A stretch of DNA of 44,231 nucleotides from the IMG/VR virus record IMGVR_UViG_3300045988_042325, positions 1 to 44,231 of that record. One strand, given 5' to 3'. The translations under genes were made by a program, and so were the position numbers. The DNA is from a virus. Positions 3,660 to 37,145 of this stretch are shown piece after piece. The notes under the pieces are model-generated. The model searched no databases and had not been told where the DNA came from. It saw only the letters and a program-made list of their open reading frames with translations. Numbering within the stretch: the first letter of the stretch is position 1; each line of letters begins with the position of its first letter.

Positions 3660-3732
3660 TTGGAACAGGCGGATTCGAACCGCCGACACTCTGGTTATGA
3701 GCCAGATGCTCTAGCTGCTGAACTATGTTCCA
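3660..3732 (-). tRNA. tRNA with CAT anticodon (Met, or Ile2 if lysidine-modified)
   Basis: 73-nt cloverleaf: acceptor TGGAACA/TGTTCCA; D arm GTTC-AGCAGCTA-GAGC; anticodon arm TCTGG-CTCATAA-CCAGA; T arm GGCGG-TTCGAAT-CCGCC. Confidence 0.85.
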
Positions 3733-3794
3733 AAAAAATCCACCCAAGTCATAGACCATCTGTAAACAGATAGCTTAACTTTAAGCGGATAAAA

Positions 3795-3865
3795 GTGGAG
3801 CACCAGGAATCGAACCTGGAATCCAGGGTGCTACCCTGTCGGTTTGCCATTAACCGTATGTTCCA
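3795..3865 (-). tRNA. tRNA-like gene with non-canonical anticodon arm (possible AGC anticodon or pseudo-tRNA)
   Basis: 71 nt. Acceptor TGGAACA/TGCTCCA has one A.C mismatch. D arm CGGT-TAATGGCAA-ACCG and T arm CCAGG-TTCGATT-CCTGG are canonical. The anticodon arm CAGGG-TAGCA-CCCTG gives a 5-nt loop, or a 4-bp stem with loop GTAGCAC. Confidence 0.5.
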
Positions 3866-4128
3866 CTGGGGGGGACTGCTACGCTTAGATTGTCACACCA
3901 TAAAGGCAGTTTTCAGCGTACTTAACAGGTATGATTTCTACTTGTAGGAGAAAAGCAAGTAGCTTGCACACGCCGGAAATTGCATCCGCTTTTCAACCTC
4001 TCAGTATTGCTACTGATTTCTCTTAAGGACGTGTGCCAGAAAGGAGGTAAGAAAAAATACAACAGATATATCGTTTCCGCAATTTTATTTTACCAAAAAC
4101 GCTATTATATTTTGTCCCCACCTCAACG

Positions 4129-10049: not shown

Positions 10050-10053
10050 GGTT

Positions 10054-19232: not shown

Positions 19233-19875
19233 TGCCCAACCTCTCTCTGATCCGCTGCGTTGCCAGAGCATCGTAGTCGGTGTCTCTCTGTTCGAAATTG
19301 TGAAAACCGTTCTTTTTTGCTTCTGGCTTTCCCTGTGTTTTTCTCGTTGCGTCATTCTGTGCTCTCGCAAACCAGCTATTTATATGTCTGGTAACACCAC
19401 TTCGTGTCTTCTTGTTCTTCGGATTAGATTTGTTCCACCCGATAATATTTCTTAACTCCTGTGCTGCATCCACTGCCGGGTATAGACTTTGCAATTCGGC
19501 AAGAGCCAGTTCCGTGACGGCGTAGTCTGTTCCATCAATCAATGGTATGTAACCAACTACCGGGCTTGTATCTTCCTGCGGCACCTTTTTCTTACTATTC
19601 TCTACTGTTTTTTCTTCCACATAGTTATCATTCTTTTCTACGTTGGCATATTTAACAGGTCTTCCACCTCTGTATCCATTGGCTTTGCGCTCAATGTTAG
19701 CGTCAATCTGCGGCTTTGCCATATCGTACGCCACCAGGTAAAACCCGTCCTCTTCCGGCTCGACTCCATCTAACCCATAGTCGATGATCGCCCATAATGC
19801 CTTTAACTGCTGATCTTCTGATAGGCGTTTAATAGCAGTCTGAAATGATTTGTAAAATACAAGGCTATCTCTCAT
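19225..19875 (-). CDS. Phage replication-associated protein (replisome-organizer-like, tentative)
   Basis: N-terminus 'FYKSFQTAIKRLSEDQQLKALWAIIDYGLDG' and C-terminus 'NIIGWNKSNPKNKKTRSGVTRHINSWF' resemble phage replication-initiation helper proteins by eye. Confidence 0.5.
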   Translation of the reverse strand: MRDSLVFYKSFQTAIKRLSEDQQLKALWAIIDYGLDGVEPEEDGFYLVAYDMAKPQIDANIERKANGYRGGRPVKYANVEKNDNYVEEKTVENSKKKVPQEDTSPVVGYIPLIDGTDYAVTELALAELQSLYPAVDAAQELRNIIGWNKSNPKNKKTRSGVTRHINSWFARAQNDATRKTQGKPEAKKNGFHNFEQRDTDYDALATQRIRERLGNG

Positions 19876-20197
19876 CTCTGCCCGCCTCCCATTCTCCGTA
19901 TATCTGCATCCAATCGGTAAGCCGCATGGTTACCAGCCATTCGCACCGATCACGGCGGTGGAAGACTGTCGGGATAAGCCCGGCGGCTGCATCATGCACG
20001 GCCTGTCCCATTGCATCCAGCAGATTCAGTTTTTCAACCCGCTTGCACTCAATATGGATTCCTGGCAGACCTACAACATCAGCGTCTCCGTTGGCTCCGC
20101 AATACTGCTGGCCCCTTCTGGCGTTGTATCCGTAGTCTCTAAGTATCTTCGAGAGTTCTCGTTCTCCCCTTGCTCCCTTCTTTTTGGAGTTAACCAC
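19865..20197 (-). CDS. PD-(D/E)xK nuclease, Holliday-junction-resolvase-like
   Basis: 'KKGARGERELSKIL...DADVVGLPGIHIECKR' fits the E...D...E-x-K pattern. Start moved to GTG 20197, which overlaps the upstream stop and has a GGAGGTGG RBS. Confidence 0.6.
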   Translation of the reverse strand: MVNSKKKGARGERELSKILRDYGYNARRGQQYCGANGDADVVGLPGIHIECKRVEKLNLLDAMGQAVHDAAAGLIPTVFHRRDRCEWLVTMRLTDWMQIYGEWEAGRDER

Positions 20198-20561
20198 TGT
20201 AACCACCTCCAAAAAATGAGATTTGACCACGGCACTGCTTTTCTTTCTTTTCTGTCTGTGCAAACCGTCTAGCACCATTCTGCGCCTTTCTAATGCTGGC
20301 GATACGACGGTTCTGTCTTTCAATCCATCTGGCCGCCTCAGACCGTCCCTGTGCGTTTGTGCGTGGGATATAATAACCTTTCCCGCCCTCTACGCTTAAG
20401 ATTGGTCTTTCATGCCGAAGCATCTCAATCGCTTTTCTGACTGCACGGTCTGGCATTCCTGTTTTCTTTGCCAATTCCTGCCTTGATGTGGCGTTTTCAC
20501 GTCCTACACCGATAGCATTATATACAACCGCCATTGCGGTATCTGCGATTCTGTAGTCCAA
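20190..20561 (-). CDS. Winged-helix DNA-binding protein
   Basis: 'TSRQELAKKTGMPDRAVRKAIEMLRHERPILS' matches the wHTH pattern. Confidence 0.65.
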   Translation of the reverse strand: MDYRIADTAMAVVYNAIGVGRENATSRQELAKKTGMPDRAVRKAIEMLRHERPILSVEGGKGYYIPRTNAQGRSEAARWIERQNRRIASIRKAQNGARRFAQTEKKEKQCRGQISFFGGGYSG

Positions 20562-20658: not shown

Positions 20659-20961
20659 TCATAAGTAGTTCTTGCCAAACTCTCCCATAAACTCTTCCCG
20701 ACTCCCGTAATGGCTCTCATAATACTCCTGTGCCATTTCCTTTAACTTCCTGTCGATCTCCAAATTTTCTTTCGTTCTTGCGAAGTTCGCGCCGTTTGGG
20801 TGTAAGTCTGGTCTTAATGGAATCACAAAACCTCTTTTTTCGGATTTCACTTTGTAGCCCTGCCGCCCCTCAAAAATGTGGTGGCGTTCTACATTCGGTG
20901 ACCCGGTAAAATAGCAATGATCCATATCATCGGTAAATGCGCTCCATAGCTTTTTAGCCAT
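20659..20961 (-). CDS. Hypothetical Cys/His protein
   Basis: Start moved to ATG 20961 (MAKKLWSAF), which overlaps the upstream stop (ATGGCTAA). Contains motif 'HCYFTGSPNVERHHIF'. Confidence 0.55.
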   Translation of the reverse strand: MAKKLWSAFTDDMDHCYFTGSPNVERHHIFEGRQGYKVKSEKRGFVIPLRPDLHPNGANFARTKENLEIDRKLKEMAQEYYESHYGSREEFMGEFGKNYL

Positions 20962-21526
20962 CTTTTCTCCTGTTCTGATCATACAGATCGAGCATCCTTT
21001 GTAATTCTTCCGGCGTTGCCGTCTCAATGCCGCATTCCTTACACTCTGACACCAGTCCATCTATTAATTCCGACATTTCCCGCGTATCATAGTCACTGGA
21101 GCCTTTTAACATCACGTATGTACGATACGTTACCCCGTCGCTCCCAGATACGGTCTGTGAGGTTGGTCTGATGTGATATGTTGACGCTTCCATAGCCATT
21201 TTCTCGGCTTTTTCTGTGTCCGGTATACGGATATATGCCTTGATCCCGTCAATCAGTAAATTTTGACCGTAGCGGCGCAACATCATGTTATGAGCGCACT
21301 GCTTTGAGATCTTCATGTACTCTGCCAGTCTGGAAAGCAGCACCCAGTAGTAAGCGTTACTGTCAAGGCTCCGCTTTTCCCTCCAGATTTTGGCGGTGAT
21401 CTTCAAATCTTTCTGGTTGATGGAATCCGCTTGACTGCTTACATCATCGTCAACCTCAAACGCCACCTGGAATTTCCCGGTTCTCCAATCTTTTTGTACG
21501 GTGATCAGTCTCCCTTTACATTCCAT
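20954..21526 (-). CDS. ninB: NinB/Orf-like recombination mediator
   Basis: 'REKRSLDSNAYYWVLLSRLA' and 'GSSDYDTREMSELIDGLVSECKECGIET' parallel lambda NinB 'ERNRSLDQNRKLWACLGDV' and 'GQSTSRMRVGEFAELLELIQAFGTERGV'. Adjacent to the annealase. Confidence 0.6.
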   Translation of the reverse strand: MECKGRLITVQKDWRTGKFQVAFEVDDDVSSQADSINQKDLKITAKIWREKRSLDSNAYYWVLLSRLAEYMKISKQCAHNMMLRRYGQNLLIDGIKAYIRIPDTEKAEKMAMEASTYHIRPTSQTVSGSDGVTYRTYVMLKGSSDYDTREMSELIDGLVSECKECGIETATPEELQRMLDLYDQNRRKDG

Positions 21527-22287
21527 TATTTAAACGGGACTCCCTCCTCATTCTCTGGTGGTACAGTGCTTGGATCAACGCCACCTGTTGATTTTGACGG
21601 TGTTTTCTCAAACGCTGCCATTGCTCTTTTAAACTGGTCAATCGTCAATTCAGCCAGCGTTGTTCCTCCAATCGCCTTTAAAATCGCTGACTTTGGTTTT
21701 CCAATGCGATTGCATCCGCTTAAAAAGGTCTGCCGCATTTCTTCCGTTGCATATTCCGGTTGATCTGATTTCATGGAAAAAACCACTGTATTTTTGCATT
21801 TGATAACCAGATCAACGATATTCTTTTTTTTGTCATATCCAATCTTGCTTACGGTAAAGCGATCATTGCACGTATAAACAGTCTTTCCTCTGGAATCAGT
21901 TCTCCCAGTACTTACGAGTTTGCATTTTTCAGACGGTACCCAGATAAACGGAGCTGTGTAAAGTTCCCGTCCAATACCCCAGTTGAAGCAGGCACGCTTA
22001 AAGCTATCCGATGCAAGTCCTTTTTCTTTCTCTGTATAACTTTCCGTGCCAGTGTCCTCTTTTGATATCCACTGTTTCTTCTCATCGTCCCACAGGCTAA
22101 CTGTACAGTTTGCGTTGTCCCGGCTATGACTTCTCTGCCAGTTCATCGGTCCTACTGTCTCATCAAGGATATTCTGATCCACTCTAGCATCCTTATAAAG
22201 TAATAAGGACACGCCTTTTTCACTTACCGTTGCTATCCTACAATCAATTTCAGACGCTTCTAGCAAACGGAATGATAATTCTGCCAT
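21526..22287 (-). CDS. Rad52/Sak-type single-strand annealing protein
   Basis: 'RVDQNILDETVGPMNWQ' and 'KGLASDSFKRACFNWGIGRELY' are the family signature. Confidence 0.85.
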   Translation of the reverse strand: MAELSFRLLEASEIDCRIATVSEKGVSLLLYKDARVDQNILDETVGPMNWQRSHSRDNANCTVSLWDDEKKQWISKEDTGTESYTEKEKGLASDSFKRACFNWGIGRELYTAPFIWVPSEKCKLVSTGRTDSRGKTVYTCNDRFTVSKIGYDKKKNIVDLVIKCKNTVVFSMKSDQPEYATEEMRQTFLSGCNRIGKPKSAILKAIGGTTLAELTIDQFKRAMAAFEKTPSKSTGGVDPSTVPPENEEGVPFK

Positions 22288-22295
22288 ACCATCAC

Positions 22296-22781
22296 CTACT
22301 TAATCTGCATATTCTGTCTCTTTGTAAGAGACGCCCCCTCAATAACCTCTCCGGCCTTTAATGCCTTTTTCAAAGCCATCTTGTCCACTTCTGGATCTTT
22401 AACCTTTATGTATTCCTCCGGAAGAGCTGTGACATCTCCCACATACTCAACCGCCTCCGATGATCTCCAAGACACAGATACCCTAGGTGTGGAGAATTTT
22501 TCTCCGTTTAACGCCATTGCAACCCATCTCTTTAAACTCTCCGCTCTTTTCTCTGCCTGCTGCTGACGCTCCGCAAAAGCCATCTTTTCTTTCTTGAGTT
22601 CCTCGGCATCGCTGACCAGATTCTTGATCCAGAGTAACACACCCTCAATCTTCTGGTCTCTGGCTTCCTGGAGACTGTCCAGTGCCGCATATGCGGCTTC
22701 ATTCACAATTTCACCTGTCTCTGGATCTACTGCTTGCTCAAAAGCCTGCATAATCATTTCGTCAATTTCGTACAGTTTCAT
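22296..22781 (-). CDS. Siphovirus Gp157-like protein
   Basis: 'MKLYEIDEMIMQAFE...', a central coiled coil, and 'FSTPRVSVSWRSSEAVEY...LPEEYIKVK' match the Gp157 family pattern. Confidence 0.8.
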   Translation of the reverse strand: MKLYEIDEMIMQAFEQAVDPETGEIVNEAAYAALDSLQEARDQKIEGVLLWIKNLVSDAEELKKEKMAFAERQQQAEKRAESLKRWVAMALNGEKFSTPRVSVSWRSSEAVEYVGDVTALPEEYIKVKDPEVDKMALKKALKAGEVIEGASLTKRQNMQIK

Positions 22782-23315: not shown

Positions 23316-24011
23316 TTACTCCTCTGGCTCATTTTCTTCTGGAGTGAGGTCAATCTGCATCTTCGCCAGTTCAACCGCTGCTAAATACGTTTTAGCGTGC
23401 TTATTGTCCCCATGCGTTTCCTTGACTTTCTTTACGAATTCATCCACATTTCCTATAAAACATCCACACGAAACACCGATAAAAAGATTGTTTGTACGGA
23501 AAAATGTAGTAAATCCATTTCTGCTACCCATAGGACCAATCACTAAATAGTGAGATGTTTTAAAGACTCTGGCGTATCCGCGTACTGTGGCATTTCCGCG
23601 TACTGTGGCATTTTCGCGTACTGTGGCATTTTCGCGTACTGTGGCATTTTCGCTGACTATGGCACTTCCGCTGACTATGGCATTTTCGCTGACTATGGCA
23701 CTTCCGCTGACTATGGCATTTTCGCTTATTGTGGCGTGTCCGCGGACTATGGCACTTCCGCTGACTATGGCATTTCCGCTGACTCTGGCGTGTCCGCGTA
23801 CTGTGGCATTTTCGCTGACTATGGCATTTTCGCTTACTGTGGCACTTCCGCGGACCCAGGCGTTTCCATCTTGAGAAAGGTTCTCTTCTTTCTCCAAGAA
23901 TCCACCTAGTTCGCCCTCTTTCACGTCCCCAAACGCCACCAGCGCCCGGATGCGGTACAGGGTTTTTCCAAGCTTCACGATACTTTCCGATGTTAATTCA
24001 AATTTCTTCAT
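23316..24011 (-). CDS. Hexapeptide-repeat (left-handed beta-helix-type) protein
   Basis: 17 consecutive hexapeptides (SENAIV, SGSAIV, RENATV, RGHARV and so on) lie between the N-terminus 'LYRIRALVAFGDVKEGELGGFLEKEENLS' and the C-terminus 'GCFIGNVDEFVKKVKETHG'. Confidence 0.75.
   Translation of the reverse strand: MKKFELTSESIVKLGKTLYRIRALVAFGDVKEGELGGFLEKEENLSQDGNAWVRGSATVSENAIVSENATVRGHARVSGNAIVSGSAIVRGHATISENAIVSGSAIVSENAIVSGSAIVSENATVRENATVRENATVRGNATVRGYARVFKTSHYLVIGPMGSRNGFTTFFRTNNLFIGVSCGCFIGNVDEFVKKVKETHGDNKHAKTYLAAVELAKMQIDLTPEENEPEE
23562..23867. repeat. Tandem array, 17 x 18 nt, inside the hexapeptide-repeat gene
   Basis: Units include GCGTACTGTGGCATTTTC, GCTGACTATGGCACTTCC and GCTGACTATGGCATTTTC. 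Several adjacent units are identical. Confidence 0.9.
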
Positions 24012-28841: not shown

Positions 28842-29036
28842 AAAAGCACGTTGGAATTTGTACCCACAGAAAAAACGCCCGGTGCTGCAACACCAGACGT
28901 TTTGAATAATTGGGATGATACGCTGATACACTATCAACCTACACACTTATTGTATCATCCCAGACTCAGCCATGCAAGATAAATTTCCAAAATCTGGTAA
29001 GGCTGTATTTTTTTATACCCAAAAGGAGGATACACT

Positions 29037-30170
29037 ATGGCAAATGCAAAGAAATTACCGTCTGGATCATGGCGGTGTCTGGTCTTTAGCCACACGGAGC
29101 ACGTGTTGGACGAAAAGACCGGGGAACTAAAAAAGGTAAAACGCTACCGCTCTTTTACCTCTGATCTCCCAGGAAAAGCCGGGAAAAAGGAAGCAGAGCG
29201 AGCCGCTGCCGAATGGCTGGCAAATAAACCAAAAAGCAACGCATCCATGCAGTATACACTTGATAATATGACACTGAGGGAAGCGGCTGAAAAGTACATA
29301 GATATGTGTGTGTCGCTTAATCGGTCTCCTTGTACGATCCAGGACTACCGCTGCATCTTGAACAACGGATTCCAGGATCTCTTTGATCTGAAGCTAAAAG
29401 ACATTGACGAAATGATCCTGCAAGAAGCTGTTACGATGGAGTCGAAGCGCACAACCAATGGAAGAACCAAAAGACCATTGTCTGCAAAGCGTCTGAAAAA
29501 CGAGTGGGGATTGGTAAGTGCTACACTCCACAAATACAAAAAGAGCATCGACACCCATGAGATACATCTTCCGTCTGTGCCGGATCGCATCCCGGAGCTG
29601 CCCGCAGCTGACGTTGTGATTGACCTGGTACGTGGGACAGAAATAGAACTTCCGGTGCTGCTGGCTATGTGGTTATCCTTTTCCATGTCTGAGGTACGTG
29701 GACTTACAAAGTCAAAATCAATTAAAGACGGATGCATCACGATCAATGAAGTGGTTGTGGACGTAGACGGAAAGCCTATCAGAAAGGGCGATCCAAAAGA
29801 ACCTACACGAAGAAGATCACACAGAATTCCTCCATATATCATGAACTTGATCGACCAGGTAGATGGTGATGTCTTGGTGCCAATCAGCGGCAAAGCACTT
29901 TATCACCGATGGATTAAGCTCCAGAAAAAAGCCGGAATGGAGCCGATCACCTTTCACGATCTGCGGCACGTAAGTGCTTCCGTAATGGCTCTTTTACAGA
30001 TCCCGGACAATTACGCCCAGGAACGTGGTGGCTGGAAGAATGATAAAATAATGAAAAAAGTGTATATTCAAACATTTTCTGAGGAAAGGAAAATGGTAGA
30101 TAGCAAGATAGACTCTTACTTTGAAAGTAAAATACAACACGAAATACAACACGAAAAGAAAAAAGCCTAG
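29037..30170 (+). CDS. int: Tyrosine integrase
   Basis: 'ITFHDLRHVSAS', 'ERGGWKND' and 'KKVYIQ' fit the catalytic H-x-x-R, (H/W) and Y boxes. Adjacent to attP. Confidence 0.9.
   Translation: MANAKKLPSGSWRCLVFSHTEHVLDEKTGELKKVKRYRSFTSDLPGKAGKKEAERAAAEWLANKPKSNASMQYTLDNMTLREAAEKYIDMCVSLNRSPCTIQDYRCILNNGFQDLFDLKLKDIDEMILQEAVTMESKRTTNGRTKRPLSAKRLKNEWGLVSATLHKYKKSIDTHEIHLPSVPDRIPELPAADVVIDLVRGTEIELPVLLAMWLSFSMSEVRGLTKSKSIKDGCITINEVVVDVDGKPIRKGDPKEPTRRRSHRIPPYIMNLIDQVDGDVLVPISGKALYHRWIKLQKKAGMEPITFHDLRHVSASVMALLQIPDNYAQERGGWKNDKIMKKVYIQTFSEERKMVDSKIDSYFESKIQHEIQHEKKKA
30134..30155 (+). repeat. 22-nt direct repeat copy 1 (candidate integrase arm-type site)
   Basis: ACAACACGAAATACAACACGAA, itself two tandem 11-mers. 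Lies in the last codons of int. Confidence 0.7.
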
Positions 30171-30186
30171 TAAATACTAGGCTTTT
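30164..30186 (+). terminator. Terminator after int
   Basis: AGCCTAGTA-AA-TACTAGGCT followed by TTTT. The stop codon lies inside the stem. Confidence 0.55.
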
Positions 30187-30190
30187 CGAG

Positions 30191-30220
30191 AGCGCGAGAC
30201 GGGACTCGAACCCGTCAAAC
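30191..30220 (-). other. attP core: 3' fragment of a tRNA gene
   Basis: The minus strand reads ACGGG-TTCGAGT-CCCGT (T arm), then the acceptor 3' strand CTCGCGC, then T. No D or anticodon arm lies upstream. Confidence 0.6.
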
Positions 30221-30339
30221 GCTTACATCCAAAAACTGCGTAATTGCTTTATTTCCTTTATTTATGCGTATTCTTAACTCTCGTAAATTTTACTTAAATA
30301 TCATATTTGATACTATTTTACAGTATTTAAGACAAAAAG

Positions 30340-30361
30340 ACAACACGAAATACAACACGAA
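30340..30361 (+). repeat. 22-nt direct repeat copy 2 (candidate arm-type site)
   Basis: Identical to 30134..30155. The two copies flank the tRNA fragment. Confidence 0.7.
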
Positions 30362-30582
30362 GTATTTAAAATTTAAGTGTATAAATATTCCATGAGAAGT
30401 TTTGAAGAATTTCAGAATTATGATGAATAAATTAGGTTTTATTTTCAATCATACCTCGATTCGTGTTTAGAACGGCAAGGTTACCATTCTGCAAATTTCC
30501 TTTTTTGATGGCTTTTTTAAATATTGAGTAATACAAAAAGCCCACTAAAATTGAGCAACATAAATAAAAAGGTATTCTTATA

Positions 30583-30611
30583 TTGATAAATTAAATTGAG
30601 TATACTATAAT
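30583..30611 (+). promoter_or_regulatory. Near-consensus promoter of the RHH gene
   Basis: TTGATA, 17-nt spacer, TATAAT. The spacer contains ATTGAGTATAC. Confidence 0.6.
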
Positions 30612-30634
30612 TAAGAAAAAAGGAGGTTAAACAA

Positions 30635-30838
30635 ATGGAATTATTGGAAGCAAAAAGAAAGTTAGAGCAACGCTATAACAAGCAAAATGAATATAATAAG
30701 AAGAATTACGACAGAGTTTCCGTGATGTTCCCGGCTGGATATCGTGACAAAGTAAGGGCGATCGCAAGCAGCGAAGGGAAAAGCCTAAACGCCTACATAC
30801 TTGAGGCTGTGCAAGAAAAGATAGAAAAAATTGAGTAA
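30635..30838 (+). CDS. Ribbon-helix-helix (Arc/CopG-like) DNA-binding protein
   Basis: 67 aa. 'YDRVSVMFPAGYRDKVRAIASSEGKSLNAYILEAVQEKI' fits a beta-strand-helix-helix pattern. AAGGAGG RBS. Confidence 0.7.
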   Translation: MELLEAKRKLEQRYNKQNEYNKKNYDRVSVMFPAGYRDKVRAIASSEGKSLNAYILEAVQEKIEKIE

Positions 30839-30852
30839 TATGAAAAAAACTA

Positions 30853-30881
30853 TTGACAAAATATATTGAGTAATATATAAT
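30853..30881 (+). promoter_or_regulatory. Consensus promoter downstream of the RHH gene
   Basis: TTGACA, 17-nt spacer, TATAAT. The spacer contains ATTGAGTAATA. Confidence 0.6.
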
Positions 30882-31015
30882 AGTGTTATCAAAAGAAAAC
30901 AGGATGAGAAGAAGCACAGTATGAGGAATACGAGATCGAAGTCGAACTCGGATAAGGCGCAAAATGTTATAATGACAGTGTCAAAGGAAATCCAAAATGA
31001 AAGGGGAATGAAAAA

Positions 31016-31246
31016 ATGTTAAGCAAAAGCGAAAAAGAAGAAATATTAAAAAAATGTACAAACATGTCAGAACATGACATAAAAAAGCATATTCAGAACG
31101 GAGCTTGTTTTTATCCAAATAACGATGAGGGCTATAAGGCTTATTTTGACGAGTGTGTTGCAGGTTTAAATGATGAATATGAAATTCCTGATATGTGGAA
31201 TTCTTTAGACATTATAGAAAATTATAGAGTCGATTTCATATCGTAA
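31016..31246 (+). CDS. Hypothetical acidic protein
   Basis: 76-aa ORF with an AAAGGGGA RBS-like sequence upstream. Confidence 0.55.
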   Translation: MLSKSEKEEILKKCTNMSEHDIKKHIQNGACFYPNNDEGYKAYFDECVAGLNDEYEIPDMWNSLDIIENYRVDFIS

Positions 31247-31320
31247 AGTTTTTATGGAAAGGTAAAGATCATGAGCAAAATTGATGACATGAGAGCCGAG
31301 ACCAGAAATATTGAGAGATT

Positions 31321-31366
31321 GAGTGGGCATAGTACTTTGCGAGGGTAGAATGCCCACTCGTTTTTT
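31321..31366 (+). terminator. Rho-independent terminator
   Basis: GAGTGGGCAT...ATGCCCACTC (10-bp perfect stem) followed by GTTTTTT. Confidence 0.7.
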
Positions 31367-31419
31367 ATTTTAATACTTACAATCAAAAAATCAACCTTTT
31401 TCGGATAAAAAAGCGACCC

Positions 31420-31902
31420 ATGAATTTTCTCATGAGCCGTTTTTATGGATTTTTTAACCTGTTAAACGGTGCGGTGGATGTAATCAATGATTTACAAACA
31501 ACCGTGGCGAAGCAGGCCAGTGCGATTGATACGCTAAATAGCAAGAACATTGGCAAAATTTATCATAAATATGGAAATGTTATCGCTAAAAAGAACACAT
31601 ATGTAGAAATTTGCCAGGTGTCAGTACCAGCAGGTGTATACATTATTTGCGCTATTGTTGGTATTAATATTGCAGATCCTAATAATATTATGAGTTTAAA
31701 TATTTCGCTGTTTGATAATGCAACAGGACAAAAAATTACAGAACAAATTGCAAGAACTACATCATCTAGTGGTGGTGGGTGTTCTACTACTATTGCTGTG
31801 AATTTAGATAATTCCGCAAGTGTAGTTTTATTATCTTATGGATATATTAGCGATAAATCTTATAATTTTACGGGAGACTTATGGGCAGTAAAATTAGGAT
31901 AA
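31420..31902 (+). CDS. Silent alternative tail-fibre C-terminal cassette (Cv2) with a fortuitous start
   Basis: Residues 13-42 'NLLNGAVDVINDLQTTVAKQASAIDTLNS' are identical to the fibre protein encoded on the opposite strand. No RBS before ATG 31420. The unrelated 119-aa C-terminal domain ends 'DLWAVKLG'. Confidence 0.6.
   Translation: MNFLMSRFYGFFNLLNGAVDVINDLQTTVAKQASAIDTLNSKNIGKIYHKYGNVIAKKNTYVEICQVSVPAGVYIICAIVGINIADPNNIMSLNISLFDNATGQKITEQIARTTSSSGGGCSTTIAVNLDNSASVVLLSYGYISDKSYNFTGDLWAVKLG
31455..31544 (+). repeat. Inverted repeat, left arm (90 bp, 100% identical to the reverse complement of 32670..32759)
   Basis: Verified base by base. Flanking bases differ on both sides. Confidence 0.95.
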
Positions 31903-32111
31903 TACCAAATGTTACTTTTTGCTCCAATTTTGCCAGTTTCCATCAGTCTTGCACCTAGTAAGAACCGCAATACTACTAGTACTGTATGTTATAAACAAAT
32001 AGTATGATCACCAGGGGTAATCCATAACGGAGTGTATTTTAATCTTGGAACGGAGATTATTCGGTTCTGGATTTATGACGGTGTTTTTGATAAAAAAAAT
32101 ATATAATCAAA

Positions 32112-32375
32112 TTACCCGATAAACTTTTTGAGTTCCCAAAAAAGTATTGTTAATTCTTGTGATACAGTAGAGAATACCCACCATTTCCCGGAATCCTGCA
32201 TAATTGTAGCGTTATATGAAAGAGTCGAAGAATTTTCAAATATAACAGGTATTACAGTTTGATACCCTTCTGTCCCTGGGATCTCAACGGCTTGATTTGC
32301 CACTGCATTGACTACATGCTTATGGCGATAGATTTCTGCTTTATTACCATTTGTATGATTAAGTCGCGATAAGCT
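32112..32375 (-). pseudogene. Third, decayed tail-fibre tip cassette (Cv3) or small accessory ORF
   Basis: The frame is open from just after the fibre stop. It has no ATG or RBS (GTG at 32303 only). 'RLNH..EIYRHKHVVNAVANQAVEI' versus Cv2 'TLNS..KIYHKYGNVIAKKNTYVEI' gives about 8/18 identities by eye. Confidence 0.4.
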
Positions 32376-32380
32376 TCAGT

Positions 32381-33157
32381 CTAAAAAGTACTCCAATTTG
32401 TCCATTTGCCATTATTAAATGCTCGTGTAGCCCGTTTATTATAGACATCAATATAAATCTGTACATATACGGCTTTTGTATTGGTTGAATGAACAGTGTA
32501 TGGGCTCCGCATACAGAAGAGAATTCCGTAACTTGAAAATCCAGAAGGTAAAGCACCGATATTTTCGCCCGTTACATAATACACGCCTGTACGTTCGGGA
32601 CTATTTAAGCTGTTTGTCTCTGCTTTGACGGTTACATTAATTCTGTTAGCCGAAGTAAGGTCGGTTACATTGCTATTTAGCGTATCAATCGCACTGGCCT
32701 GCTTCGCCACGGTTGTTTGTAAATCATTGATTACATCCACCGCACCGTTTAACAGGTTAGTCACCCGTAAAAGCCCCTGTTCTGTGTTATTGAGATGCTC
32801 TGCGTCAATATCCGGTTCTGAATTATTGACGTACTCAGTCGGTACATAATCGGCCAGTTTGTTCAAAGCAGCATAGGTAGACACCAGTAGTGCGGACTCA
32901 AGAGTTGCTGGATCATTTGCTGGATCTGTGACAACCTCTGTGGTGGTATCCTTTTCCGCTCCGTTTTCTTCCGTATTTGTGGTGCTGCTATTCTCTGTGC
33001 TTTCTTCTGAATCAGACTTCGAAGTATTAGACTCCTCCTGGGCGGTGTCAACATTCTGGTCTGATGTGTCGATGATCGGTGTTCCGTCTCCGTTGATAAT
33101 GTCGGTGTCTGAATCTGGATATTCGGTTTCGGTTGCAATTGGTTTATTTTCTTCCAT
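32381..33157 (-). CDS. Tail fibre / receptor-binding protein with exchangeable C-terminal tip (Cv1 currently expressed)
   Basis: Start moved to ATG 33157 (MEENKPIATE), with an AAGGAG RBS. It has an acidic S/T/D/E-rich N-terminus, then the constant helix encoded by the IR, then the tip '...GVYYVTGENIGALPSGF...NGKWTNWSTF'. Confidence 0.75.
   Translation of the reverse strand: MEENKPIATETEYPDSDTDIINGDGTPIIDTSDQNVDTAQEESNTSKSDSEESTENSSTTNTEENGAEKDTTTEVVTDPANDPATLESALLVSTYAALNKLADYVPTEYVNNSEPDIDAEHLNNTEQGLLRVTNLLNGAVDVINDLQTTVAKQASAIDTLNSNVTDLTSANRINVTVKAETNSLNSPERTGVYYVTGENIGALPSGFSSYGILFCMRSPYTVHSTNTKAVYVQIYIDVYNKRATRAFNNGKWTNWSTF
32670..32759 (-). repeat. Inverted repeat, right arm (inside the tail-fibre gene)
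   Basis: The reverse complement is identical to 31455..31544. Confidence 0.95.
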
Positions 33158-33167
33158 TTGTTTCTCC

Positions 33168-34058
33168 TTATACACATTGAATTTTATAAATATTATATTC
33201 ACATTCTGCTGATGACTGGATTCCAAGGAACACATATATATACTTCATTTTTGATCTTTGATCTGATGTATAGTTGTCAAGGTTAAGGACCCATTCTGTT
33301 TGTCCATCGGCTGTCATTATTCTTACATCAACGATGGCTCCAAGACTTGTCAACCATTCATTGCCCATAGCATTTGCTAACTGGTCTGTAAAATAATTTT
33401 CTGTTATCAGCAGGCTAAGACCTTTTCCTTGAATTTTATCGGCTATGATTTTTACTTTGCTTAACTTAGTAAAATCCAATGCTTTTGCAAATCCAATCGC
33501 AATGCCCTCGTAAAATCCTCCGGTAAATATCCAGTATGCATCTTTTATGATTTTTGCGCTACCGAGAGTGTATTTACCTGATGTAATTTTTACCAAGTCT
33601 GTTGTAAATCCAGGGCCTAAAGTGCCATAATAAAATGGCATGTTGGGGTCTTCGTTGAGATACCCTTCCCACGTTCCAGGACCTATGCCTGCTACATACA
33701 TGCCTTTTTTTATGACTGCGGATGTAAGGTTGGCGATTGGCTTTAATTCTATGTTTCCGGTTGCGTACTTTCCACTAGTTTTTACGGTTATTGAATTTTT
33801 CCCAGTAACGATTGTTTCACCGTTATATGTTGGAACAGATGATTTTACAGTACCGCCGCCGTAGTAACCAGAAGGAAGTACGATAGACCCATTCAGTGGT
33901 AAAGTTTTCTGGGGTGATCCGTTATCTAGTTTTGTGCCTACACCCTTATCACCGTTAGATTTCATATATGTCTTTCCGATCAGTACATCGGACTCAGTAG
34001 CGGTTACGGCGGTACTATCAACCGTAACTCCATTTTTTTGCAGCAAACATTCTCCCAT
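33168..34058 (-). CDS. Tail fibre/baseplate-associated protein
   Basis: 296 aa. The N-terminal 'ATESDVLIGKTY' motif is shared with the upstream 140-aa ORF. Position is between baseplate and fibre genes. Confidence 0.65.
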   Translation of the reverse strand: MGECLLQKNGVTVDSTAVTATESDVLIGKTYMKSNGDKGVGTKLDNGSPQKTLPLNGSIVLPSGYYGGGTVKSSVPTYNGETIVTGKNSITVKTSGKYATGNIELKPIANLTSAVIKKGMYVAGIGPGTWEGYLNEDPNMPFYYGTLGPGFTTDLVKITSGKYTLGSAKIIKDAYWIFTGGFYEGIAIGFAKALDFTKLSKVKIIADKIQGKGLSLLITENYFTDQLANAMGNEWLTSLGAIVDVRIMTADGQTEWVLNLDNYTSDQRSKMKYIYVFLGIQSSAECEYNIYKIQCV

Positions 34059-34480
34059 TACTCAAATCCCTCATAAATTCCAGTGATTGCTTGACTTCCC
34101 TCGCCTACCACTACACCTCTTTTTATATAAGCAGGATTAAAGTTTTCAGCGGCAGTAATCGTAACATCTCCTTGCATGTAATTTCCAGCAACCTCCACAG
34201 TAACGCCATTTCCTCGTGGGGAAGCTGAAAATGCAGCTTTCAAAGGAACTTCTTTCTGCGTTATTTTCTGCTCTTTTTGGTGATCTCCGGCTGGAATGTT
34301 GTAAGTACCATTAATCTCAATAATTACATCAGATATGGACGCAGCTGGCATACTTCCTGTTTGAAGGGTGTCTACCTCTGCACCGAAAAATGTTTTTCCG
34401 GCAGCTACATCTTTCGGCAGTGCCGTATACTCTTCTGGATAGTATCGACCTCCCTGTTTAAGTAAAAACGCCTCTGCCAT
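34058..34480 (-). CDS. Tail-associated protein, paralogous N-terminal motif
   Basis: 'LPKDVAAGKTFFG' resembles 'TESDVLIGKTYM' of the next gene. Confidence 0.6.
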   Translation of the reverse strand: MAEAFLLKQGGRYYPEEYTALPKDVAAGKTFFGAEVDTLQTGSMPAASISDVIIEINGTYNIPAGDHQKEQKITQKEVPLKAAFSASPRGNGVTVEVAGNYMQGDVTITAAENFNPAYIKRGVVVGEGSQAITGIYEGFE

Positions 34481-34481
34481 C

Positions 34482-34958
34482 TTACTCCCCCTTTAAAGCA
34501 ATTTGAAATGTTGATGCTGGTTTTTGATTATAGCAATAAAGCGTAATATTACCTGTTCCGGTGGTGATTCTGTCCACATATCCATAAGCTCGCCCTTGCT
34601 CCTTTGCCTGGGTTCCTGTGGTGCCATCTGGAAGATATAGGGACACGATCGGTGTATGCGTTGATAGGATTCCTTGCACGTTTACTGTCTGTCGATATGG
34701 TGCCGATGCTGACCAGCCAGAAACCGGAATTGTGACGTATCTAACGTTTTTCATGTCTCGCCCAAGCTCGGCTATATCGGTCTCATTTTTATTGACCTGT
34801 GTATTTGTCCGATTGACATCTCCAGCAGAATAAACGTCACCCTCCTGGGTGTACTCCGTAATATCTTCGATGTATACGCTTCCATCATCGTTCTGGGTGA
34901 TCTTATATTTTTTCTTTCCGGCAAAAATATCGTCTTTATATGTGGTTTTTAAGCTCAT
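34482..34958 (-). CDS. Tail/baseplate protein
   Basis: 158-aa ORF in the tail module. Confidence 0.6.
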   Translation of the reverse strand: MSLKTTYKDDIFAGKKKYKITQNDDGSVYIEDITEYTQEGDVYSAGDVNRTNTQVNKNETDIAELGRDMKNVRYVTIPVSGWSASAPYRQTVNVQGILSTHTPIVSLYLPDGTTGTQAKEQGRAYGYVDRITTGTGNITLYCYNQKPASTFQIALKGE

Positions 34959-35395
34959 AGGCTCACCTCCCTGTTGCCAAGTGATCTCGTACCAATCCGG
35001 AACGATAAATGGTTTAGTCCTGGGGACGCTTTTTCTATCAGTGTTCCGAGATCGTATATGATCCGTTCGATTGCATTAGCCTGGTATATTGATGTATATG
35101 TGATTCTGATCGGTGTCAGCGGTGTACTGTCCGGTGTATAATATGCACTTCGGATAGCTTCGATATTTTTTCTTAGTCGAATCATATCGGCTTCGGTACG
35201 GAAATCATTCGGCTGCCAATTCAACTTGTTATTGGTGGTATTTTTGTACCCCTTTCGATTAAGAACATAGGACACCCATTTTACCGCCGATTCAATCCGG
35301 TTGAGATCAGTGTAATCTATATAGGCTTTGGCCGCCATATTGTCTATGTCAGCCTGTGTCCGGTCAAATATCAAGCTATCAAGATATTTACTCAT
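34955..35395 (-). CDS. Tail-associated protein
   Basis: 'DRTQADIDN...YIDYTDLNRIESAV' is a pattern common in Firmicutes prophage fibre-associated proteins. Confidence 0.6.
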   Translation of the reverse strand: MSKYLDSLIFDRTQADIDNMAAKAYIDYTDLNRIESAVKWVSYVLNRKGYKNTTNNKLNWQPNDFRTEADMIRLRKNIEAIRSAYYTPDSTPLTPIRITYTSIYQANAIERIIYDLGTLIEKASPGLNHLSFRIGTRSLGNREVSL

Positions 35396-37145
35396 GTATC
35401 GTTACCCTCGCTTTAACTTCCCTGGTGAAAGTAGGATCAATGCTTTCGATGATTCCCTCTCTTATACCATCATACCCGGTATCTACACGCACTTTGTCCC
35501 CCAACTTCTTATCGCCCAGAAGCACATCTCCCACCACGTTCTCTGCCCGCTGATAGTAGGCATAAATCCGTTCAAGGGCAGTCTGTCCATTTGATGGATT
35601 GATTAATGTTGCATCTGTAACTTCTTTGATATTTTTGTTAAAGATGATATCTGGGTTATCTTTGGAAATCACCGATGTACTGTGGCTGTATTTGCCGCCC
35701 GTTAAGGTTACTGTGCCGCCTGTTCCAGTCACTACCGCATAGTTAACTCCACTCTTTACAATCGTTCCACCGGAGACAGAAAGACTATGATGTGGCTCTG
35801 AGAACACGATCTCAGCCGTCCCGTTCAGTGTGTCTTTGTAAAGCTCCTCTGTTTCGGAAATCTGCGTGTAAGTATGGGTAGTAAGTCGCACACCGGTTAC
35901 GATATCGCTATGCTCCAGTGTCAGCCCGGTAAAAGTGTTGTGCTCGTTAAATTCACCTGTCACTTCTGTGGCCTGTGGATAAATATCCACGCCCTCTACA
36001 TTGGACGTATCCACGATGGCACCAATAGCAAAGGCAATCTGCACAAGAGCGTTTCTTTTCGTGGTGTACGGGATGTACCCGGTCAATGTTGCATCCTTAT
36101 AAGCATCATCCAGGGTGTAACCGAAATCCTCATTTGCGAAGATCTCCGTGAGGACTTCTGACAGCTTGCGGCCTGCGTAGATACCGCCCACGTACTCATT
36201 ACCGTCCAAGACTCCCAAAGCATCGTGAGAATCCATATAATAGTCCGTCTTATTCTTCCTTGCGCCAGACTTTAAGTAAAAATTGCCAAGCAGATCGCCG
36301 TTAAAATACAGACCTAACCGCTGCTTTTTCTGGAGGTCAAACGGAATATTACTTTTTGTGCGGACGGTAAAGGAAAGGGTGTTGATACTGATATTCTCGG
36401 AAATGGCGTTGATCTCCTGCAAACAATCGGTCTGCATCAATTCGTCATCCAGGAAATCTCTATAAATACCATAATCAATTCTAGTCAAAAAGACTGGTCT
36501 GTGCGGCTTTGATGTGGATTTAAAGGTGATCACGATCTTGTTGTAGTTATGCACATACTGATTGCAGAAATACCGCACGCCATCCGCAGTAAAGTCCTGG
36601 TTAGCCAGTAACGTGGTATCCTCATACCATTTAACATTCAGATCTTTAGCATAGTCTCCAGATAACATATTAAATGTAAAGAGAATTCCTACACTGGTGA
36701 ATTTACCATTAAATGTGATCGTAAGTGCCGGGTTATTCATCACCGTTTCCTGTGTACCACCAGGGAAAAGAAAAATACGTGGATGCAGTGCCGTGTGTGG
36801 CTTCAATCCTTGCTTGCTGATCTGATATCCAAAATCGCCGTTATCATCGCTATACTCGCTTGAGATATAGCCATAATCCGCCGGGTCTTCTGGGAAATTG
36901 ATATAATCACCATTTAACAGGGAGAAGCCGGGATAACACAGGGCATATCCAGGGTAAGACAAATCATCACGCCGGAGATCCGGGAACTGGCGCTCTATGG
37001 TGGTCTGTTTTGGATAAAGACCAGCATGAGGATACAGTCCTTTCCTTGGATACAGTCCAGCCTTGATGATCTGCGGAAGACTGTTCTCTTTTGCGTATGG
37101 TGCCACGTCATCATATACGATTTTTAAACCCTCATTGTTTGCCAT
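35388..37145 (-). CDS. Tail-associated lysin-position / baseplate hub protein (Tal-like)
   Basis: 585 aa after moving the start to ATG 37145 (MANNEGLKIVYDD), which overlaps the upstream TGA. Position is after the Dit-like gene. Confidence 0.65.
   Translation of the reverse strand: MANNEGLKIVYDDVAPYAKENSLPQIIKAGLYPRKGLYPHAGLYPKQTTIERQFPDLRRDDLSYPGYALCYPGFSLLNGDYINFPEDPADYGYISSEYSDDNGDFGYQISKQGLKPHTALHPRIFLFPGGTQETVMNNPALTITFNGKFTSVGILFTFNMLSGDYAKDLNVKWYEDTTLLANQDFTADGVRYFCNQYVHNYNKIVITFKSTSKPHRPVFLTRIDYGIYRDFLDDELMQTDCLQEINAISENISINTLSFTVRTKSNIPFDLQKKQRLGLYFNGDLLGNFYLKSGARKNKTDYYMDSHDALGVLDGNEYVGGIYAGRKLSEVLTEIFANEDFGYTLDDAYKDATLTGYIPYTTKRNALVQIAFAIGAIVDTSNVEGVDIYPQATEVTGEFNEHNTFTGLTLEHSDIVTGVRLTTHTYTQISETEELYKDTLNGTAEIVFSEPHHSLSVSGGTIVKSGVNYAVVTGTGGTVTLTGGKYSHSTSVISKDNPDIIFNKNIKEVTDATLINPSNGQTALERIYAYYQRAENVVGDVLLGDKKLGDKVRVDTGYDGIREGIIESIDPTFTREVKARVTIHE

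Follow-up and report, generated by a model that had tools for sequence, protein, structure and literature searches.

The Gin (Mu), Cin (P1) and Min (p15B) inversion systems use a serine recombinase that acts at dyad sites of roughly 26 bp and requires Fis and an enhancer. The R64 plasmid shufflon, in which the recombinase Rci is encoded outside the array, acts at sfx sites on a plasmid pilus adhesin. Closest to the locus considered here is the Rin shufflon of the Bifidobacterium prophages Bb423phi1, Bl30698phi1 and Bl157phi1 (Mavrich et al. 2018, PMC6109161). In the bifidophages 689b-1 and Bb423phi2 an inverted fibre locus lacks an invertase, and the authors suggest that one acts in trans (PMC6109161). 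BV01-like Phocaeicola phages carry a tail-fibre shufflon with all configurations represented in reads (PMC13596623, preprint). At the S. pneumoniae spnIII locus, inversion between 15-bp repeats strictly needs the tyrosine recombinase CreX; inversion between 85- and 333-bp repeats depends on neither CreX nor RecA, and it also continues in natural CreX-less strains (PMC6620402).

The window analysed here is a stretch of 44,231 nt whose first and last 119 bases are identical, giving a closed genome, as an earlier interpretation made from the letters alone (the sequence-only reading) had stated; its unit is 44,112 bp. SPAdes produced the source contig as a node of 44,167 bp, and we read its 55-base excess as the circular overlap at k=55 (44,167-55 = 44,231-119 = 44,112). 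Because the arms of the inverted repeat exceed this inferred k, the orientation of the middle segment and the perfect identity of the arms are not independently established by the window; the identical 90-nt perfect repeat is present in two further assemblies, one of them built with k=127. The repeat brackets alternative 3′ ends of a tail-fibre gene:

32381..33157, minus strand: expressed tail-fibre gene (from ORF and translation), comprising a constant N-terminal part, a 29-aa arm region and cassette E
32670..32759, minus strand: right arm, anchor a, inside the fibre gene, with the crossover core GCTAAATAGCAA at 32670-32681
31455..31544, plus strand: left arm (anchor b*), in which a second 90-bp fibre-arm sequence is joined to the b flank, with the core GCTAAATAGCAA at 31533-31544
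32384..32671, minus strand: cassette E, now fused to the constant part, and silent at b* in the related contigs L148 and L150
32115..32345, minus strand: cassette G, between the arms, stranded downstream of E in E's orientation
31543..31902, plus strand: cassette F, a silent, inverted, promoterless alternative 3′ end joined to the left-arm core
31310..31454, no strand: b flank, conserved in all relatives

The arms (31455-31544 and 32670-32759) are 90 nt long, 100% complementary and 1125 nt apart, in agreement with the arm length first reported. A core sits at the inner tip of each, and these two perfect copies are the only ones in the genome. The constant part and cassette E of the fibre gene both match relatives, and the exact fibre protein was found solely on the source contig. 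Cassettes E, F and G are all intact open frames. G is preceded by a degenerate pseudo-core (ACAAATGGTAA, 32344-32354); the relatives L028-L030 express this cassette (protein P0019). No fibre joining the constant part to F was present in a collection of 5.8 billion proteins, and the window's own segment did not appear in the opposite orientation in the sequences searched. Of the 6 changes private to F, about 5.5 are nonsynonymous, as would fit a cassette that has been unexpressed for some time. The b flank contains terminator-like hairpins for the fibre operon (31439-31414, minus strand) and for a 76-aa gene (31343-31355, plus strand). The start of an ORF beginning MNFLMS falls within the b-flank hairpin.

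The recombination functions encoded in the window are as follows:

29037..30170, plus strand: tyrosine integrase, located 1.3 kb from the segment; the genome encodes no other site-specific recombinase
30132..30361, plus strand: attP region, with a tRNA-3′-end-like core at 30188-30226 (prophage junction of L031 versus phage forms)
19865..22781, minus strand: homologous-recombination module, candidate machinery for homology-driven inversion
19865..20323, minus strand: RusA-like/PDDEXK nuclease of this module
20954..21526, minus strand: NinB/Orf of this module
21526..22287, minus strand: Erf/Rad52-like annealase of this module
22296..22781, minus strand: Gam-like protein of this module

Profile searches for resolvase/invertase and tyrosine-recombinase domains, which the sequence-only reading had proposed, matched only the integrase. 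Pfam analysis of all 88 called ORFs of at least 40 aa gave a single PF00589 protein (29037..30170) and no match to PF00239 or PF07508, and a tyrosine-recombinase HMM iterated over 143 related loci likewise matched the integrase alone among six-frame stop-to-stop ORFs of at least 50 aa in the window. Hin, Gin and gamma-delta resolvase seed sequences matched no serine recombinase in full six-frame translations, where bit scores were negative throughout. The original statement that the genome encodes no serine recombinase was thus upheld, as was its inventory of an integrase with an annealase, a NinB-like and a resolvase-like protein, to which the Gam-like protein can be added.

As the sole site-specific recombinase encoded, and at a distance of only 1.3 kb, the integrase might double as the invertase, but several observations make this very improbable. 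Sister phages keep a dedicated recombinase (gene rec) although their integrase is 97% identical and their cores are the same, so the integrase is evidently insufficient, and it has no detectable similarity to rec (tblastn, E<10). The attP core is a tRNA 3′ end, unlike the shufflon core TAAATAGCAA. It is flanked by tandem ATACAACACGAA repeats (30132-30155 and 30338-30361) that are found only around attP and that we take to be arm-type integrase sites. A search of the switch arms for sub-sites resembling the attP core had been proposed; the integrase core and the presumed arm-type repeats are both absent there.

The sister phages, which share 94-97% nucleotide identity, carry a multi-cassette shufflon at this locus. 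In L001 (about 94% identity to the window) the order is fibre, cassette A, inverted B, rec, D and inverted C. The product of rec is a 331-aa tyrosine recombinase that scores as XerA/XerC/XerD-like and is encoded inside the cassette array; the gene is also present in L028, L029, L031-34, L038 and L039. The shufflon core, (GC)TAAATAGCAA, measures 9-12 bp and is perfect at every anchor of the related loci. Cassettes change anchor from contig to contig: F lies at b or d, G at a or c, and C at d or a. All exchanges across the family map to the core, which marks the inner limit of the arms. Two premises of the sequence-only reading are overturned by these data: the crossover site is the core and not the 90-bp arm, and the expected partner is not a serine invertase of the Gin/Cin/Min type. 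Since the sisters' cognate enzyme is a tyrosine recombinase, a missing serine-recombinase motif says little. Comparison with the sisters shows the ancestral state, in which an armless Xer-like tyrosine recombinase of 331 aa, encoded between the cassettes as it still is in the sisters, attaches alternative 3′ cassettes, which lack promoters, to the constant fibre gene by recombination at cores located at four fixed anchors, a-d.

The rec gene is absent from the whole window. Its place is taken by the following features:

30437..31309, plus strand: inserted module of 874 bp, located where rec, anchor c, the distal cassettes and anchor d would otherwise lie
30635..30838, plus strand: RHH gene, with a promoter-like site at 30583-30611
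31016..31246, plus strand: 76-aa acidic ORF, with a 12/12 consensus promoter at 30853-30881
30425..30436, plus strand: degenerate remnant of anchor d, GAATAAATTAGG versus GAATAAATAGCAA in relatives

A terminator and these two ORFs had been noted outside the left arm, and all three were found again. Comparison shows that the recombinase gene was replaced by the RHH and 76-aa module, a simple history that the sequence-only reading did not contain; these two promoter-bearing genes took the place of rec, anchor c and the distal cassettes, and a single invertible segment was left between anchors a and b, with E, G and F on it. Many contigs encode the RHH and 76-aa proteins, and the rec-less backbone is widely distributed (36 index blocks, many samples). 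In the sister lineage L040, a deletion from the d core to a pseudo-core immediately 5′ of rec has removed the gene; with the window type and L002, rec has been lost in at least three distinct configurations.

A mis-join over this region, which is variable, bounded by repeats and broken at the arms in many assemblies, could in principle have lost the recombinase gene. The insert, however, is unique in sequence and has promoters and a terminator of its own. Its junctions are identical in L148, L150 and L156, contigs from differing samples and assemblers in which both RHH-o76 junctions were recovered independently (L147 spans the arm-side junction only). These independent contigs effectively refute an assembly artefact as the cause of the absence of rec, and we find that explanation scarcely credible.

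The rec-less backbone itself exists in rearranged forms. Exact inversion isomers are seen in L156 (a>E, <stub, <X2) on the one hand and L148/L150 (a>X2, >stub, <E) on the other; their 754-bp segments are reverse complements apart from 3 substitutions. Three cassettes (F, E and H) join b* exactly at the core. A junction of b* with X2 was searched for and not found. Arms of 90 bp occur only in the RHH-o76 backbone (the window and eight other contigs) and in none of the rec+ contigs examined, in which the repeat is about 12 bp. Over 6.8 kb, 5 substitutions separate L148 from L150, and 4 of these represent two changes that each recur, mirrored, in the opposite arm. In its constant region the window is of the L028/L001 type (1 difference in 400 nt upstream); its arm differs from the L028/L001 arm at 5/90 positions and equals that of the b* clade. 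The arms appear to co-vary between genomes, and this pattern, together with the b*-clade arm of the window, fits gene conversion between arms. Arm identity and co-variation may be partly an assembly effect, since assembly collapses repeats longer than k, a caveat that touches the window if the inferred k=55 is correct. A single ancestry may underlie the link between b* and the loss of rec.

Any flipping must now rely on the 90-bp repeats or on a related phage's enzyme. Among the routes initially suggested, homology or the annealase and an enzyme in trans are live candidates, while the dual-use integrase is disfavoured. The reading we prefer, and to which we give about an even chance, is that the locus is an orphaned Rin-like tail-fibre shufflon that is still flipped, at a low rate, through recombination driven by the homology of the arms. 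We infer that in the rec-less lineage anchor b gained 78 extra fibre-gene bases, lengthening the repeat from about 12 to 90 bp. The segment would then invert at low frequency by homology-dependent recombination, carried out by the phage Erf/Rad52-like annealase with NinB and the resolvase, by host RecA or by a RecA-independent route. The isomers within the rec-less backbone, the pattern of arm variation, the encoded recombination module and the CreX-independent inversion on long repeats in S. pneumoniae all speak for this reading. Inversion would alternate E-ended and F-ended fibres and leave G out of reach. Homologous exchange with flipping rec+ relatives could also yield the cassette diversity of rec-less phages.

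The main rival, possible but on balance rather doubtful, is that a sister phage's 331-aa recombinase, or another Xer-like invertase, flips the segment at the two cores, the 90-bp arms being incidental. The enzyme would come from a co-resident prophage or a co-infecting phage in the same cell. The perfection of both cores, the only two in the genome, and the joining of F, E and H to b* exactly at the core are as this rival would have it. Furthermore, L156 and L150 have exchanged exactly at the cores with a repeat of only roughly 12 bp in L156, which homology alone explains poorly. Sisters with rec are common in gut metagenomes, and an enzyme in trans has been proposed for the bifidophage locus (PMC6109161). 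Against it, no rec+ relative shared a sample with any rec-less contig in the small set retrieved, and stable co-residence would need tandem lysogeny, since the sisters have the same integrase and attachment site. The confinement of long arms to the rec-less backbone and the co-variation of the arms are also left unexplained.

It is unlikely, in our estimate, that the locus is a frozen relic, with no meaningful inversion rate after rec loss and the phage locked on cassette E; variety among relatives would then predate the loss or represent ordinary exchange between phages. The unseen fibre of constant part plus F and the nearly all nonsynonymous private changes in F favour a relic and, with the unseen opposite orientation and the missing b*-X2 junction, weigh against homology-driven flipping. 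G is stranded behind a degenerate site, and the repeated loss of rec suggests that loss is tolerated. A relic is harder to reconcile with three intact cassettes and two perfect cores, with both isomers of one segment within the rec-less backbone, with arms that appear homogenised within genomes, and with the wide distribution of that backbone.

Comparison with described systems places the sisters nearest to Rin. Both have a constant N-terminal receptor-binding or fibre gene followed by a promoterless array of variable 3′ cassettes, a short asymmetric crossover site before each cassette (the 11-bp rix in Rin, a 9-12-bp core here) and rearrangements between related genomes; by layout and description, both also have an armless XerD-like tyrosine invertase separate from the phage integrase. 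Unlike Rin, the window has no invertase, the rec+ sisters encode theirs between cassette pairs rather than at the array end, the host group is Lachnospiraceae-type gut Firmicutes and the site sequence is unrelated. In 689b-1 and Bb423phi2, a segment of roughly 500 bp with alternative gene ends and no flanking recombinase is inverted between relatives at a short site, a precedent that weakens the initial claim that any such mechanism would be unusual. Here, by contrast, the rec+ sisters and the defined replacement junctions allow the history of the loss to be traced, and the repeat has apparently grown to 90 bp, which would have opened a homology-driven route. The spnIII/ivr (cod) hsdS inverton of Streptococcus pneumoniae (CreX/PsrA) similarly has a core of roughly 10 bp within inverted repeats of varied lengths (PMC6620402, PMC4948785), but it concerns a bacterial restriction-modification specificity gene rather than a phage fibre, and its recombinase-independent inversion is experimental where ours is inferred. 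The BV01-like shufflon shares a multi-cassette array over the fibre-gene 3′ end, a 10-bp directional motif and an adjacent recombinase with the family described here (PMC13596623); its recombinase is present, and the host phylum differs. As in the Gin, Cin and Min systems, inversion would exchange alternative C-terminal fibre ends and so change host range, although the serine recombinase, the roughly 26-bp dyad sites and the Fis/enhancer requirement are all absent. Finally, the R64 shufflon resembles the family, by description, in its tyrosine recombinase, its multiple inversions among several short sites conserved on one side and its alternative C-termini of one protein; it differs in acting on a pilus adhesin instead of a phage fibre and in having Rci outside the array.

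The fibre switch of the window is built on a perfect 90-nt inverted repeat (31455-31544 and 32670-32759) with a spacer of 1125 nt. In the fibre protein an acidic N-terminal part is followed by 29 aa that the arm encodes (NLLNGAVDVINDLQTTVAKQASAIDTLNS) and then by the 96-aa C-terminal cassette E, and two further 3′ cassettes are present:

32381..33157, minus strand: expressed fibre gene, the last tail gene, containing the right arm
31543..31902, plus strand: cassette F, promoterless and silent, headed by the left arm, on the opposite strand to the fibre gene
32115..32345, minus strand: cassette G, silent, between E and F and oriented as E

This is the layout of a fibre shufflon gene, with a constant 5′ part and promoterless alternative 3′ cassettes in both orientations, and cassettes of the window are also expressed in relatives. 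Each arm has the crossover core GCTAAATAGCAA at its inner tip (31533-31544 and 32670-32681), and these are the sole two copies of the core in the genome. Inversion of the segment would exchange E for F as the end of the fibre. Cassette G is unreachable by inversion because the site before it, ACAAATGGTAA, is a degenerate, directly oriented pseudo-site; comparison with the related contig L040 shows that ACAAATGGTAA reads as part of the 3′ flank of E.

A switch frozen in its present orientation is one possible reading of this locus. Cassette F had no match in IMG/VR, and in a large protein collection it occurred as short silent ORFs only, never fused to the constant part. Two observations favour a frozen relic: a fibre composed of the constant part and F is absent among 5.8 billion protein clusters, and almost all of the changes in F that are private to the window are nonsynonymous. 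The comparison of synonymous with nonsynonymous cassette changes is too slight to tell a frozen switch from an active one. We consider this reading improbable.

The genome itself is closed, temperate and siphovirus-like, with a GC content of 42.8% and terminal 119 bases that are identical at both ends. Its counterpart in ENA is NODE_184_length_44167 (assembly ERZ652199), and both lengths would reconcile to a 44,112-bp unit if the ENA contig has a 55-bp k-mer overlap. Its proteins appear in NCBI nr under 'MAG TPA ... Caudoviricetes sp.' Elsewhere in the window, two tRNA genes (3659-3732 and 3794-3866, minus strand; tRNA-Met (CAT) and tRNA-Ala (AGC)) lie inside the head-gene region, which is adjoined by an N6/N4 DNA methyltransferase gene (PF01555; 517-1290, minus strand). 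The 540-aa terminase (11502-13124, minus strand), which recurs as the exact protein in 21 contigs, matches Terminase_2 (small subunit) at residues 5-115 and Terminase_3/3C (large subunit) at residues 156-529, and looks like a fusion of the two subunits. An endolysin-like (ELLD) protein with a choline-binding-type repeat (9240-10067, minus strand) is encoded between the portal and minor capsid genes, not beside the tail genes; no lysis cassette is visible in the window between fibre and attP, where the distant relatives L010 and L013 differ. In the early region, a 231-aa protein (23316-24011, minus strand) is largely a beta-solenoid/bactofilin-like repeat (SENAIVSGSAIV...).

The sequence-only reading had described a fibre switch with no cognate invertase in a closed genome, and this was borne out by each search for an encoded enzyme. 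Pfam was run on all 88 window ORFs of at least 40 aa, concatenated into pseudo-proteins; the integrase (29037..30170) was the one PF00589 protein, and no resolvase (PF00239) or large-serine-recombinase domain was found. A tyrosine-recombinase HMM, built iteratively from the recombinases of 143 related loci, was compared with all six-frame stop-to-stop window ORFs of at least 50 aa and matched the integrase alone. Hin, Gin and gamma-delta resolvase seeds gave no match to the six-frame translations of the window, searched with filters off, or to ~2 Mb of related loci. The closed genome has no armless Xer-like tyrosine invertase in or beside the array, as a Rin-type system would, and no serine recombinase gene adjoins the segment, as one would in a Gin/Cin/Min/Hin system. 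The left flank consists, as the same reading had it, of a terminator, a 76-aa ORF and an RHH ORF, and the homologous-recombination module that it had reported was confirmed:

19.8-22.8 kb: homologous-recombination module, comprising an Erf/Rad52-like annealase, NinB and a RusA-like/PDDEXK nuclease, and in addition a Gam-like protein

The switch was placed in context by comparison with related phages. Among 50,697 GenBank phage records, megablast found nothing that matched 29000-35400, while IMG/VR, ENA and Logan assemblies contained sister phages of 94-97% nucleotide identity. In the sister contig L001 the order is the fibre gene with cassette A, inverted B, a recombinase gene (rec, 331 aa; L001 9278-10270), short D, inverted C and the integrase flank; rec is also present in the sister contigs L028, L029, L031-34, L038 and L039, and was absent when sought across the whole window by tblastn. 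The rec protein scores as XerA/XerC/XerD-like, its best solved relatives being an archaeal XerC-like protein (4a8e) and XerD (1a0p). An alignment of rec with homologues of 30% identity, which likewise adjoin fibre genes, shows no variation at residues R187, K211, H278, R281, H304 and Y313; these are read as the putative catalytic set of a tyrosine recombinase. In the sisters the partner of the switch is an Xer-like tyrosine recombinase and not the serine invertase that had been expected.

No inverted repeats of at least 35 nt were found at the fibre in 14 IMG/VR relatives, and this led to the discovery of a short core. When every crossover site in 13 contigs was aligned, a 9-bp core, AAATAGCAA, was perfect at all anchors, usually with GCT, GAT or AAT directly 5′ of it. 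Its flanks vary between anchors and between cassettes, so that only an asymmetric core of 9-12 bp is conserved, and the ~26-bp dyad-symmetric sites of a serine invertase were not encountered. Together with the domain and seed searches, the asymmetric short core rules out a serine invertase. The core is held in four fixed left contexts:

Anchor a: within the fibre gene, pointing the same way as c
Anchor b: adjoining the terminator ahead of rec, pointing the same way as d and opposite to a and c
Anchor c: 3′ of rec, pointing the same way as a
Anchor d: adjoining attP, pointing the same way as b

Cassettes move among these anchors, with breakpoints at the site. Depending on the contig, F is joined to b or d and G to a (expressed, protein P0019) or c; C is joined to d in L001 (silent) and to a in L002 (expressed), and E is likewise found at differing anchors. 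Comparison at the sequence level shows that the switch belongs to a tyrosine-recombinase shufflon.

Read in the sense of the fibre operon, the conserved b flank (31414-31439, minus strand) forms a terminator-like hairpin with a T run. The 160-aa ORF 31420..31902 begins ('MNFLMS...') with an ATG inside this hairpin, so its start is probably fortuitous and not a real gene start. At the same fibre junction, more distant relatives (~65% nucleotide identity across the tail genes) carry inverted repeats of 12-19 bp, such as CGTTAAATAGTAATTTAAC in L004, and a scan of genome collections with the constant part yielded distant relatives alone, from assemblies of Lachnospiraceae, Clostridium and Enterocloster. 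No recombinase was found within 8 kb of the fibre junction in the distant relatives L003-L021. We dropped these as support for an integrase or host enzyme, as a second Xer-like tyrosine recombinase is encoded near the terminase, far from the fibre, in L077 (6895-8046; part of one contig with the fibre locus L008), L069 (7627-8706) and L101 (1164-2294).

That the integrase doubles as the invertase, as had been suggested from the sequence, is highly improbable and we reject it, given that sisters whose integrase is 97% identical retain rec. Nor does anything at the switch, including the arms proposed as a place to look, resemble the attP core or its arm-type repeats. As defined against the prophage junction in L031, attP has a tRNA-3′-end core starting near 30188. 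Tandem ATACAACACGAA repeats (30132-30155 and 30338-30361, plus strand) flank this tRNA-like core and are likely to be arm-type integrase sites; there are 4 matches where 0.2 are expected, and none elsewhere in the genome. The first pair lies within the 3′ end of the integrase gene and encodes a repeated 'IQHE' peptide.

The fate of rec can be followed at the same position. Between shared markers, rec, anchor c, two cassettes and anchor d occupy 1763 bp in L001, and the 926-bp equivalent in the window carries the RHH gene and the 76-aa gene. Each has a sigma-70-type promoter-like site on the plus strand (30583-30611, an 11/12 match, for RHH; 30853-30881, 12/12 consensus, for the 76-aa gene, which is followed by a terminator-like site), a moron-like layout. 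Clustered at 90%, the 76-aa protein falls together with proteins of 242-261 aa to which one source gives the name RPC12/RpoP-like. On the integrase side the insert is bordered by a degenerate anchor-d remnant, GAATAAATTAGG, at 30425-30436, and its other end meets the conserved b flank at 31310. Both junctions are identical in L148, L150 and L156, and over the stretch from 30980 up to and including the left arm L147 agrees with the window at 99.3%. Because these four contigs come from different samples and assemblers, misassembly that dropped rec is ruled out. The exact RHH protein is indexed in 36 collection blocks, from which 24 contigs were read. Comparison shows that the window's enzyme gene was replaced by an unrelated insert that left two intact cores.

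Other contigs lost rec differently. In those of the L040 type the d core is joined straight to a pseudo-core, TAATAG, just 5′ of rec (junction AATAAATAG|ACCCGATCTC at L040 8240-8262, also in L041), with rec and the distal cassettes deleted; this looks like self-deletion by the recombinase through secondary-site recombination. L002 has yet another rec-less flank, so that together with the window type there are at least three distinct rec-less configurations in this phage group.

The length of the repeat also changed. Anchor b is short (...GGATTTTTTAAGCCG[AC]TAAATAGCAA) in all rec-carrying contigs examined, in the L040-type contigs and in L156, which has the RHH and 76-aa insert, and a short anchor b means that the inverted repeat with anchor a is only ~12 bp. 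In the form that we call b*, 78 extra fibre-gene bases between GGATTTTTTAA and the core extend the arm to 90 bp. It is carried by the window and eight contigs with the insert (L147, L148, L150, L152-154, L157 and L166). In L148 and L150, as in the window, the repeat around the alternative gene ends is 90 nt long and 100% identical, with the same ends, a length in keeping with the near-perfect repeats of ~85 bp or more of spnIII-type inversion. In the sequences compared, loss of rec is associated with growth of the repeat from ~12 bp to 90 bp. A search for the exact b* junction gave no match in IMG/VR and a single 1.1-kb contig in JGI metagenomes.

Rearrangement is evident within the rec-less backbone. 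L156 has the layout a>E, <stub, <X2, as do the rec-carrying L038 and L039, and L148 and L150 have a>X2, >stub, <E. These are exact inversion isomers (core positions 98/524/861 vs 98/435/861), and their 754-bp segments are reverse complements with 3 substitutions. Accordingly, the window and L156 express E, and L148 and L150 have it silent at b*. Each of the cassettes F, E and H meets b* precisely at the core. A recombinase supplied in trans by a sister phage would best explain such core-exact exchanges in phages without rec, including the short-repeat L156, and has been proposed for an invertase-less bifidophage locus (PMC6109161); we regard this as possible, though doubtful. The isomers are those of the rec-less backbone, with none found for the window's own segment, and a search for b* joined to X2, which would give an isomer pair inside the long-arm clade, found short-b forms only.

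The long arms themselves appear homogenised. L148 and L150 differ by 5 substitutions over 6.8 kb, and 4 of the 5 come down to two changes that recur, mirrored, from one arm to the other. Over the 400 nt upstream of the arm, the constant region of the window is of the L001/L028 type (1 difference) and differs from that of L150 at 42 positions, while the window arm has exactly the L150 allele and departs from the L001/L028 arm at 5 of its 90 positions. Mirrored substitutions and an arm allele discordant with the adjoining constant region form the pattern expected if gene conversion acts between the arms. Repeats longer than the assembly k collapse in the graph, and if k was 55 for the window, as we infer, its arm identity and middle-segment orientation are not independent evidence; L148 (assembly ERZ916627), assembled at k=127, is less exposed to such collapse. 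The assemblies of L152-L154, L157 and L166 end inside the 90-bp arm or right at its inner end, and L155 just before it. Such ends are expected where a repeat exceeds k, and mixed orientations would fit them too.

Homology-dependent inversion across the 90-bp arms is ranked first among the agents that may flip the segment, if any does, ahead of rec in trans, a frozen relic and the integrase. Long arms occur only where rec is missing, the arms appear homogenised, and the phage encodes its own annealase, NinB, resolvase and Gam set. There is also experimental precedent: at the pneumococcal spnIII locus, inversion on a 15-bp repeat is strictly CreX-dependent, neither CreX nor RecA is required for it to continue on the 85- and 333-bp repeats, and strains that naturally lack CreX go on switching (PMC6620402). 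According to the homology-dependent model, after loss of the dedicated tyrosine invertase the inverted repeat would have lengthened from ~12 bp to 90 bp, and general recombination, possibly driven by the phage's own single-strand annealing protein, would invert the segment. We tentatively suggest that a widespread gut-phage lineage may have kept its host-range switch working in this way, through a longer repeat and general recombination, perhaps with its own annealing protein. The anomaly seen in the sequence alone is largely explained by comparative data, and what stands of it is a testable, somewhat novel hypothesis.

Tail-fibre switches determine phage host range, and they are usually annotated and engineered by seeking an adjacent invertase. 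In the gut Firmicutes phages described here the relevant enzyme is an Xer-like tyrosine recombinase acting at a ~10-bp core, not a serine invertase. Its gene has been repeatedly lost, by deletion at its own recognition site in L040 and by replacement with a moron-like two-gene insert in the window, and one invertase-less lineage is common and has much longer repeats. If long repeats sustain the switch by general recombination, a recombinase-independent phage fibre switch would have evolved from a site-specific one, invertase-based surveys would under-count switchable phages, and the two forms would offer a natural before-and-after pair for gauging to what extent homology makes up for a missing site-specific enzyme. 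Should the switch be frozen or rely on sister phages, it would exemplify host-range plasticity that depends on co-infection.

Among known systems, Rin of Bifidobacterium prophages combines one constant gene with variable cassettes; its crossover site is asymmetric and 11 bp long, and its invertase is armless, XerD-like and distinct from the phage integrase (PMC6109161). By its organisation the sisters' array is a shufflon of the Rin kind. The window has the constant gene, the cassettes and the short asymmetric site, and by sequence is a member of this kind through its sisters; as the encoded invertase, one defining feature, is missing, we file it as an orphaned derivative and not as a full member. 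Invertase-less phage fibre inversion has been noted before, in bifidophages (PMC6109161); what this case adds is a documented route of loss, a rec-less lineage that is both recurrent and abundant, and the association between absence of rec and a repeat that has grown from ~12 to 90 bp. A similar fibre system is reported in BV01-like Phocaeicola phages (PMC13596623). The R64 shufflon (Rci/sfx) has several sites conserved on one side that allow multiple inversions, and the rec-carrying sisters, with four anchors and permuted cassettes, share this arrangement; their rec is a generic Xer-like enzyme, and the window lacks rec and keeps only two functional-looking sites. Gin/Cin/Min/Hin switches are of another kind, the window having neither a serine recombinase nor ~26-bp dyad-symmetric sites, and in its workings the system resembles the Rin, BV01 and R64 shufflons.
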